A stretch of 48,939 nt of DNA from Escherichia phage vB_EcoS_PHB17, in the sequence record NC_054892.1; one strand, given 5' to 3'. Of the stretch, positions 39,149 through 47,150 are shown piece after piece. Every line of letters begins with the position of its first letter. Positions within the stretch are counted from its first letter, which is position 1. A program made the position numbers and the translations under genes. The notes below the pieces were generated by a model. It saw nothing but the letters and a program-made list of their open reading frames with translations, was not told the DNA's origin and made no database searches.

Positions 39149-39895
39149 ATGGCTAAAGACGTTTTAGATAATTCAACTATTGACGGCGTGGCAGAAGTTG
39201 ACGAAATGGATTTTCACGAATTGCAATATGGTAAGTATTCAGATATTGCATTGCGTTCTGGCGGTCACTATCAACCAGTAAGAGAAAACACTTATTTCAA
39301 GGTTAGCGGCAACCGTTATGCTGGAAGTAATACGCCGGACGTTGTGCGGGATTTGTGGGCGACTCCTAGCGAGGTTGTGGAATACATGGAAAGCCGTTTC
39401 GGGAAATATGATCTTGATGCGGCGGCAAGCGACGAAAACAAAGTATGTGATAAATTCTACAGCAAGGAAACGAACTGTTTAAAACGCTGGTGGGGTAGCA
39501 AAAAGCACGTATGGTTAAACCCGCCTTACTCTAACCCCGATCCGTTTGTACTCAAAGCCATTGAGCAAATGGAGCATGACAACCAGATTGATATTTTATT
39601 ACCTGCTGATAACTCAACAGCATGGTTTAAAGACGCGCAAAAGAATGCGGCGGAAATCATCTGGATTACTGGCGACACATGGAAAGGCGAGGACGGGCGC
39701 GAATACAGCCGAACAGGACGATTAGCCTTTATTTCTGGCTTGACTGGCGAACCAGTGCAGGGAAACAATAAAGGTAGCGTGATTTTCGTCATGAGAACAC
39801 TTAAAGAAGGTGAGCAACAGAAAACTCATTATGTTGCCATTACTGAAATCTGTCCATCTGTTAAAAATCGCCGCGCAAAGGCAAGGAGTATTTAA
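39149..39895 (+). CDS. dam: DNA N6-adenine methyltransferase (phage Dam family, 248 aa)
   Basis: DLWATP, DLDAAA and NPPYS motifs; ATG 39149 after GAGGA. Confidence 0.8.
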   Translation: MAKDVLDNSTIDGVAEVDEMDFHELQYGKYSDIALRSGGHYQPVRENTYFKVSGNRYAGSNTPDVVRDLWATPSEVVEYMESRFGKYDLDAAASDENKVCDKFYSKETNCLKRWWGSKKHVWLNPPYSNPDPFVLKAIEQMEHDNQIDILLPADNSTAWFKDAQKNAAEIIWITGDTWKGEDGREYSRTGRLAFISGLTGEPVQGNNKGSVIFVMRTLKEGEQQKTHYVAITEICPSVKNRRAKARSI

Positions 39896-45410: not shown

Positions 45411-45652
45411 TTGATGATCTCAACTTTGGCTAATAACTTGCTTCCGTCATGGCTCCAGCACTCCAGCTTTTCGCGGTCAAATGTCATTGATCGGTGGAAG
45501 CTATGACCAATCAGCAGATGATCCGGCTTTTCCCTGATTCGATAAACAGTATCACCAACAAGCAGGGATGAGATCACACTATAGGTCACTTTATAAGCAT
45601 GTTTGCGCATCACTTCTGGAATGTGGCGCTTGTAATCTACACCCTTAATCAT
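45407..45652 (-). CDS. hypothetical protein (81 aa)
   Basis: ORF; stop TAG lies inside motif copy. Confidence 0.45.
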   Translation of the reverse strand: MIKGVDYKRHIPEVMRKHAYKVTYSVISSLLVGDTVYRIREKPDHLLIGHSFHRSMTFDREKLECWSHDGSKLLAKVEIIK

Positions 45653-46011
45653 GAATATTTCGCCTCAAACAGATAGACACCAGCGGCAGAAAATCCGACT
45701 TCCTCGCGGTAAAGCGTCCAGCGGTCGCCGTCCTCATCGAACACGTAACCAGCCACGCCGCCAAGCACGCGCCCTTGTTCGATCTGGTAGCGCTTTCCGG
45801 CCTTGAAAGTTTTCTTAACAGGGTTGCTATGGTCTACCCACTTGCAAAGAATGGTTTTGGTTTTGATTTCGCGGTAATCGCGAATGTCTGCATTTTTCCA
45901 CCTTGAGCCTTTCGCCATTTCGCGAACCTGGAATTGCGACTCAAAAGAAAGATCAGTAACGTGACGGGAGTGCATGAGTTTGTTGTCAGAGTTACGAATT
46001 ACTTTAGCCAT
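45649..46011 (-). CDS. hypothetical protein (120 aa)
   Basis: ORF with AAGGAG RBS. Confidence 0.5.
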   Translation of the reverse strand: MAKVIRNSDNKLMHSRHVTDLSFESQFQVREMAKGSRWKNADIRDYREIKTKTILCKWVDHSNPVKKTFKAGKRYQIEQGRVLGGVAGYVFDEDGDRWTLYREEVGFSAAGVYLFEAKYS

Positions 46012-46115
46012 TTGCTTTGCTCCTTTCGTTTAAAGTTTGGTGACGGTGCGATCTTCGTCGGTGGCCTTAACATATTGCATGATTACGCGTTCTCTCTTTC
46101 GAGTAGTGGATCATG

Positions 46116-46874
46116 TTACGTATCACGGTTAGGAATCCTGACACTTCGATCAAGCCCCAGCGTTGCCCCTCTCCAGATGCAATCCTTGCCGCTCCCGTCT
46201 ATGTTTGTATTATGCCCGCGCGGAGTCAGTGATCGCAATTGCTTTGTCCTGGCAGACTTGCCGCCGAGGTATTTCCACGCCCAAAAGAAACCGATATTGA
46301 TCGGGCCTGGTACTTTTTCCGGCATGACAAAACCGTTGCCACACCATATGCAAGTTTTCTTTGTGTACCCGTCGAAAGCTGGCATTTTCGGATGGTACGG
46401 CGTTTCATCTTCTCGCATGTATCCGCCATACTCAAACGGGTTGAAATAATGGTTCGGCTTTCTCCATTTGGTTGACAACAGCCCTACAGGGTTTTCGACC
46501 ATCCAGGGGCAACCATAGCGATTGCCTAACGCCTCCACCAGCTTTGCATTGTTCACGGCTAAATCAACGGCGTCCTCGTTGCGATCATGCTTGCGCCCGC
46601 TGTGAGCAAGTTCGGTGCATGACGGGAAAGCGAAAATAATATCAGGCTTTCCGATAATGAGTTGCTGATTCCCTGATAGGTAAGCAACAGCACCAGCAGG
46701 ATCAAACGAATCATCAATCCAGGCGTTTACATAGTGCAGGTTTTCATGTTGCATCTTGATTTCATATTCGCCGTGGTCGGCTGAATCAGCGTTGAAACAG
46801 AAAACAGTGTGACCAGCTTTAGCCCAATCCAAGCCCATAATGCCGGAGCCGTCAAACAGTGACCAGATAACCAT
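46116..46874 (-). CDS. DNA cytosine-C5 methyltransferase-like protein (252 aa)
   Basis: Motif I-like SLFDGSGIMGLDWAKAG, motif VI-like ENPVGL, but FPSC in place of canonical PCQ. Confidence 0.5.
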   Translation of the reverse strand: MVIWSLFDGSGIMGLDWAKAGHTVFCFNADSADHGEYEIKMQHENLHYVNAWIDDSFDPAGAVAYLSGNQQLIIGKPDIIFAFPSCTELAHSGRKHDRNEDAVDLAVNNAKLVEALGNRYGCPWMVENPVGLLSTKWRKPNHYFNPFEYGGYMREDETPYHPKMPAFDGYTKKTCIWCGNGFVMPEKVPGPINIGFFWAWKYLGGKSARTKQLRSLTPRGHNTNIDGSGKDCIWRGATLGLDRSVRIPNRDT

Positions 46875-47120: not shown

Positions 47121-47150
47121 AAAAAGTGGGCGGCGCAAAATCCGCCCTTA
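47121..47150 (-). terminator. rho-independent terminator (minus strand)
   Basis: GGGCGG..CCGCCC stem with T5 on minus strand after 47165-47386. Confidence 0.65.

Follow-up and report, generated by a model that had tools for sequence, protein, structure and literature searches.

A small Dcm-like cytosine-C5 methyltransferase of Escherichia phage vB_EcoS_PHB17, probably impaired by a 3' deletion that runs its reading frame into a candidate leader RNA

The Dcm of phages K42 and KarlJaspers (Bas06) is the trigger of the retron Ec86 (Eco1) (Wang et al., Cell Rep 2024;43:114857), and mutations that disrupt dcm allow the phage to escape from this retron (bioRxiv 10.1101/2023.08.16.553469; Wang et al., Cell Rep 2024;43:114857). 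K42 Dcm raises 5mC on the msDNA as judged by LC-MS, an effect lost in an inactive quadruple mutant, which is also the only context in which K175 and K176 were changed; the CCWGG target in that study was assumed from E. coli Dcm and not mapped (bioRxiv 10.1101/2023.08.16.553469). Another phage enzyme, CmoX, is a DNA cytosine C5-carboxymethyltransferase of 333 aa; Arg350 occupies its motif X position, and cmoA accompanies it (PDB 8yf3; PMC12783734). In HhaI, Asn304 sits at the transferred group, which bears on the importance of motif X (PMC12783734).

Here we analysed a Dcm-like gene of Escherichia phage vB_EcoS_PHB17 within the window, the whole 48,939-nt stretch of DNA (NC_054892.1). The encoded protein is 45% identical to KarlJaspers/K42 Dcm (E 2e-64) and belongs to the same family and length class. 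The loci are also alike, as in both dcm lies two small genes from a helicase-like gene ('putative helicase' in relatives) on the same strand. Whereas K42 Dcm has the canonical FPPCT and an intact C-terminal helix, the motif of the PHB17 protein is FPSCT, its residues 61-72 form a 12-residue insert and its C-terminus is deleted. We consider it probable that PHB17 encodes a Dcm-like C5-methyltransferase ortholog in which FPSC is tolerated and a 70-nt deletion has left the copy impaired.

The gene occupies 46116..46874 on the minus strand (ATG at 46874-46872, TAA at 46118-46116; 252 aa plus stop) and is preceded by a Shine-Dalgarno sequence, AAGGGG, at 46885-46880. The earlier note had reported this reading frame, which therefore exists as described once the minus strand is read; the plus-strand translation of 46116-46874 is riddled with stops. 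The product is identical to QDH94280.1 / YP_010064646.1 of the same phage and is not new, being listed as 'DNA methyltransferase' in RefSeq and 'C-5 cytosine-specific DNA methylase' in UniProt; literature searches for PHB17 itself found nothing. A second methyltransferase, claimed previously as a Dam-family N6-adenine enzyme at 39149..39895, was recovered there on the plus strand by Pfam PF05869 (Dam, E 6.5e-63) and phrog_111 (E 4e-83).

By sequence comparison the 252-aa protein is an ortholog of the small 'Dcm-like' orphan phage DNA cytosine-C5 methyltransferases, a very common and already annotated group encoded by most Drexlerviridae, Dhillonvirus and Jersey/9NA-like phages and by some large myoviruses. 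The PHROG profile phrog_757 ('DNA methyltransferase') matched residues 1-220 over profile positions 15-209 of 247 (E 4.1e-75), so that the resemblance goes well beyond coincidence. Homologues numbered 1062 at E≤1e-3 and 1853 clusters in an exhaustive library, typically of 215-250 aa, and tblastn found matches in 1499 phage records. Searches of Pfam, NCBIfam and the PDB sequences with the protein and its family profile gave no match. Against PF00145 the protein returned nothing at E≤1, hence below the gathering threshold, while KarlJaspers Dcm reached E 0.27 and one family member (P0118) scored 27.3 bits (threshold 22) over motifs I-IV only. PADLOC gave a marginal type II methyltransferase match (E 0.006). 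Because the Pfam, NCBIfam and PDB sequence searches were empty, the classification rests on PHROG, the fold and the literature.

The predicted fold is that of a class I SAM-methyltransferase, closest to the C5 DNA methyltransferases. The catalytic domains of DNMT3A and DNMT3B are 13-15% identical to the PHB17 protein, a level that implies no evolutionary closeness. These are eukaryotic enzymes that act as oligomers with DNMT3L. Profile search and structure prediction, both suggested in the earlier note, thus agreed on a methyltransferase, and its description of the protein as C5-methyltransferase-like, in addition to Dam, is upheld by the fold together with invariant Cys86, Glu127 and Asn128. 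The codons evolve with a dN/dS of 0.04 at a dS of 0.76, and across the first 220 there are three amino-acid changes specific to PHB17 compared with six in the phage PaulSarasin. This pattern points to strong purifying selection on the body of the protein, as expected for an enzyme.

All motif strings quoted previously are present: SLFDGSGIMGLDWAKAG at residues 5-21, FPSC at 83-86 and ENPVGL at 127-132. Within the first lies motif I, F7-D-G-S-G11 (46842..46856, minus strand), an FxGxG variant of the SAM-binding loop in which D8, G9, S10 and G11 are each at least 97% conserved. Motif IV, F83-P-S-C86-T87 (46614..46628, minus), has invariant P84 and C86, with Ser85 where Pro is usual. Cys86 (46617-46619) is the predicted catalytic nucleophile and aligns with Cys82 of K42/KarlJaspers Dcm. 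Motif VI, E127-N-P-V-G-L132 (46479..46496, minus), is of the ENV type with E127, N128 and P129 invariant, its third residue being Pro and not Val throughout the small Dcm-like family. Glu127 is the predicted protonator of cytosine N3 and aligns with E128 of K42 Dcm. The motif VIII pattern QxRxR is absent from the protein, and a conserved Y-T-K-K-T takes its place; the K172-K173 pair within it (46356..46361, minus; K172 invariant, K173 97% conserved) aligns with K175 and K176 of K42 Dcm. Compared with canonical C5-methyltransferases, YTKKT stands for QxRxR, ENP for ENV and (P/D/S)CT for PCQ.

The fold, the motif alignment and one tested relative suggest how these residues would work. A Rossmann-type SAM-binding core with motif I FDGSG would hold the cofactor and the target cytosine would be flipped into a pocket, where Cys86 of motif IV would attack C6 while Glu127 of the ENP motif VI would protonate N3. 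The methyl group would then be passed to C5, with Lys172 and Lys173 standing in for the motif VIII arginines.

FPSC had been put forward as a non-canonical catalytic motif. A Ser does directly precede Cys86, but the residue before the catalytic Cys varies across the family between P, D, S, E, V and T. The family-wide consensus is FPPCT (76 of 127 representatives), and in the closest 120 cluster representatives position 85 is D in 65, S in 37 and P in 14. The intact 231-aa orthologues of PaulSarasin, W011D and PMBT35 also read FPSC. FPSC thus appears to be a tolerated natural variant of FPPC in which the second Pro is substituted, with no sign of new chemistry. The textbook Pro-Cys is held to be invariant, whereas in nature the residue at −1 to the catalytic Cys may be Pro, Asp, Ser, Glu or Val.

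Altered chemistry had also been raised as a possibility. With Ser-Cys in place of Pro-Cys and a changed motif X region, the enzyme would either modify a different substrate or transfer a different group, such as the carboxymethyl that CmoX takes from Cx-SAM. We regard this as barely credible and found no support for it. The PPC-type relative K42 Dcm yields 5mC, and the free interchange of Ser, Asp and Pro at position 85 in close homologues suggests a permissive site and not a specificity switch. The family motif G-F-A has no Arg or Lys placed like Arg350 of CmoX. No cmoA or ligase gene was seen adjoining the methylase gene, and the neighbouring genes annotated in relatives encode hypothetical proteins and the helicase. 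The PHB17 protein is accordingly unlike CmoX in length, in the residue corresponding to Arg350 and in its lack of a cmoA partner.

The protein is about 100 residues shorter than M.HhaI, M.HaeIII and E. coli Dcm (PF00145) and has almost no target-recognition domain. The view that it is too short for a normal one is consistent with the roughly 40 residues (175-216) between KKT and TPRG. With so few residues remaining for sequence recognition, the target is probably short or degenerate. Shortness is a trait of the whole small Dcm-like family, as 116 of the 120 best homologues have 215-248 aa; the PHB17 protein reaches 252 aa only because of a read-through tail. The role of the family is probably self-methylation against host restriction.

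Residues 1-220 (codons at 46215..46874, minus) are the only part homologous to the family, as judged by the phrog_757 match and ortholog identity, and the alignments of all 120 best homologues end near residue 220. Codons 221-252 (46119..46214, minus) encode a foreign tail, HNTNIDGSGKDCIWRGATLGLDRSVRIPNRDT, in place of the conserved FARAVMIFNSK. The Changchunvirus-like phages PaulSarasin, W011D and PMBT35 share FPSC, the 61-72 insert and the genomic position with PHB17. The PaulSarasin (Bas09, QXV83698.1) protein is 95% identical to PHB17 residues 1-220 by tblastn, and across the full alignment the PHB17 protein shows 91% identity to the PaulSarasin and W011D (QCW18529.1) orthologues. In these three phages the protein has 231 aa and ends GFARAVMIFNSK, and the gene is followed by a promoter/hairpin region without a leader RNA. 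PHB17, in contrast, has a leader RNA and lacks 70 nt.

The junction reads CGCG followed by GGCATAAT (46214..46217, minus), with the 70-nt count exact against all three relatives. The missing segment comprised 11 codons, the stop codon, a CACTTTTTGTTAAA box, a hairpin and part of the intergenic region. Its loss joined codon 220, out of frame, to the adjoining promoter and leader RNA, and the frame now reads 32 codons past codon 220, across the −10 box into the RNA. Within the tail, the −10 box CATAAT supplies the codons of His221-Asn222 and the 5' half of the RNA supplies the remainder. Comparison with L034, KMI8 and the three relatives led us to reject the idea that the 3' divergence arose when a mobile 170-nt block recombined or was inserted here; it resolves two separate differences, namely the presence of the leader RNA and the 70-nt deletion upstream of it. 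With no decay elsewhere in the gene, we take the deletion to be recent.

An assembly or sequencing artefact, with the real phage carrying a normal 231-aa gene, would also produce the aberrant 3' end. The 252-aa form occurs in one deposited genome only, and the junction has just 1-3 nt of G-rich microhomology. However, a clean 70-nt loss within unique sequence is an atypical short-read error and the flanks are colinear with the relatives. An IMG/VR genome copy (L022) is identical, though it is probably the same record. We judge an artefact improbable.

What the deletion removed bears directly on activity. The family reads RS.TPRG-F-A-x-A-V-[FY]..N at this point; in PHB17, RSLTPRG is retained but the sequence after it differs (HNTNID...). 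Among the residues lost, F221, A222, A224, V225 and N229 each reach at least 95% conservation in the 120 closest cluster representatives, and the distant family representatives show the GFAxAV[FY] core as well. A GN-type motif X helix is absent from the PHB17 protein. On the basis of the sequence pattern and secondary-structure order, we infer that the G-F-A-x-A-V-[FY]..N terminal helix, deleted after Gly220, is the family's motif X equivalent and lines the cofactor site. Since this conserved helix is gone, the PHB17 copy is probably crippled, whether impaired or dead. An inactive homologue, one of the options raised at the outset, is therefore plausible for this copy; the reason lies not in FPSC but in the deleted C-terminal helix, which the earlier note missed.

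The contrary reading is that the 252-aa protein is fully active, its tail being tolerated or in part replacing the lost helix, and that the phage DNA continues to be shielded from restriction by it. The 220-codon body is undamaged by the measures given above, neither the Shine-Dalgarno sequence nor the start codon has been lost, and a first AF2 model built on 122 sequences placed a helix at 219-238. When the homologues supplied ended at TPRG, however, the tail had a pLDDT of 30-36 and no helix formed at 219-233. This second run used 35 sequences in place of 122, and a shallower alignment lowers confidence by itself. The tail helix of the first model nevertheless appears to be borrowed from homologue columns. 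The low dN/dS is equally expected after a recent deletion. In the 90% cluster of 26 members, the 252-aa form is that of PHB17 only among the 15 listed, the other 14 having 231 aa. Taken with the conservation of the lost residues, these points make an active copy unlikely, if still the strongest of the competing readings.

If the inactive protein were kept for something other than catalysis, for instance to bind DNA or serve as a decoy, that could account for a body conserved while a conserved helix was lost. However, the catalytic residues are all invariant under strong purifying selection, and such a role is without precedent in the small Dcm-like family. We consider it very improbable, and retain the reading of a recently deleted and impaired enzyme.

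The sequence into which the gene now reads has features of its own. A predicted sigma-70-like promoter, TTGCGA-18 nt-CATAAT (46209..46238, minus), matches the consensus at 9 of 12 positions. Its −10 box is part of the leader-RNA cassette and is found at the same distance in every other copy of the RNA, while its −35 box lies fortuitously within methylase codons 213-214. The candidate structured leader RNA follows (158 nt; 46042..46199, minus), which a covariance model detects once in the window, at 174 bits. The methylase reading frame ends inside this RNA and covers its 5'-most 84 nt (46116-46199). The first downstream gene is a 120-aa open reading frame (45649..46011, minus; Shine-Dalgarno AAGGAG at 46020-46025), the customary neighbour of the methylase gene in Drexlerviridae.

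The structure of the RNA is supported by covariation, and it is on covariation that the case rests because the single-sequence folding energy is unexceptional (z −0.34). The RNA was found only in phages. A 16-mer scan of IMG/VR returned 41 loci, 19 already collected and 22 new, and the true RNA copies among the new ones were L034 and L044. Helix P1 was tested by duplex folding, as MAFFT misaligns the ends. By eye, an alternative pairing of the P3/P4 region was suggested by G33A accompanied by C137U, and by G49A accompanied by C60U in KMI8. A coding origin of the conserved sequence was rejected, as there are single-nucleotide indels in the conserved core (A7 columns 18, 78, 87 and 125) and the changes in stems are compensatory. 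No match to the 4227 covariance models of Rfam was obtained for the leader RNA at E≤1 over 1.7 kb, or at E≤10 with the element alone from the PHB17 window and HK578. Literature searches by sequence string or phage name found nothing. The blv_FSE match that Rfam gave at 47121-47147 (E 0.49) reflects a terminator-like hairpin of no relevance here.

In Dhillonvirus, some Drexlerviridae and related 39-52 kb phages, the RNA begins 6-8 nt past the −10 box at operon heads, and the genes that follow it are unrelated between phages. We give even weight to the proposal that the last 84 nt of the methylase reading frame are non-coding by origin and form the 5' half of a seemingly undescribed RNA class of about 158 nt that heads phage operons. 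As the RNA travels with its promoter and not with any one gene, its target may be the transcription complex, by analogy with the put RNA of phage HK022 as a processive antiterminator. HK022 put is a cis-acting processive antiterminator of about 70 nt with two stem-loops, whereas the PHB17 RNA has a closing helix and a multi-helix core within about 158 nt. The RNA could alternatively be a ligand- or protein-binding leader.

These results place the methylase as an ordinary member of a huge and poorly profiled family missed by Pfam and NCBIfam, and not as a new enzyme class; the family has a canonical consensus, and activity has been demonstrated in one member. PHB17 carries a natural C-terminal deletion allele of the retron Eco1 trigger gene and may be a natural escaper, so that, as a weaker reading, its 3'-deleted dcm may provide a field example of retron Eco1 escape. 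The leader RNA is the more novel object of the two. It is phage-only and promoter-linked, has many invariant unpaired nucleotides and is common to phage families that are not related to one another, and Rfam has no entry for it. These properties make it a promising candidate for a new mechanism of cis-regulation by RNA in E. coli phages that have been studied closely, some of them from the BASEL collection.

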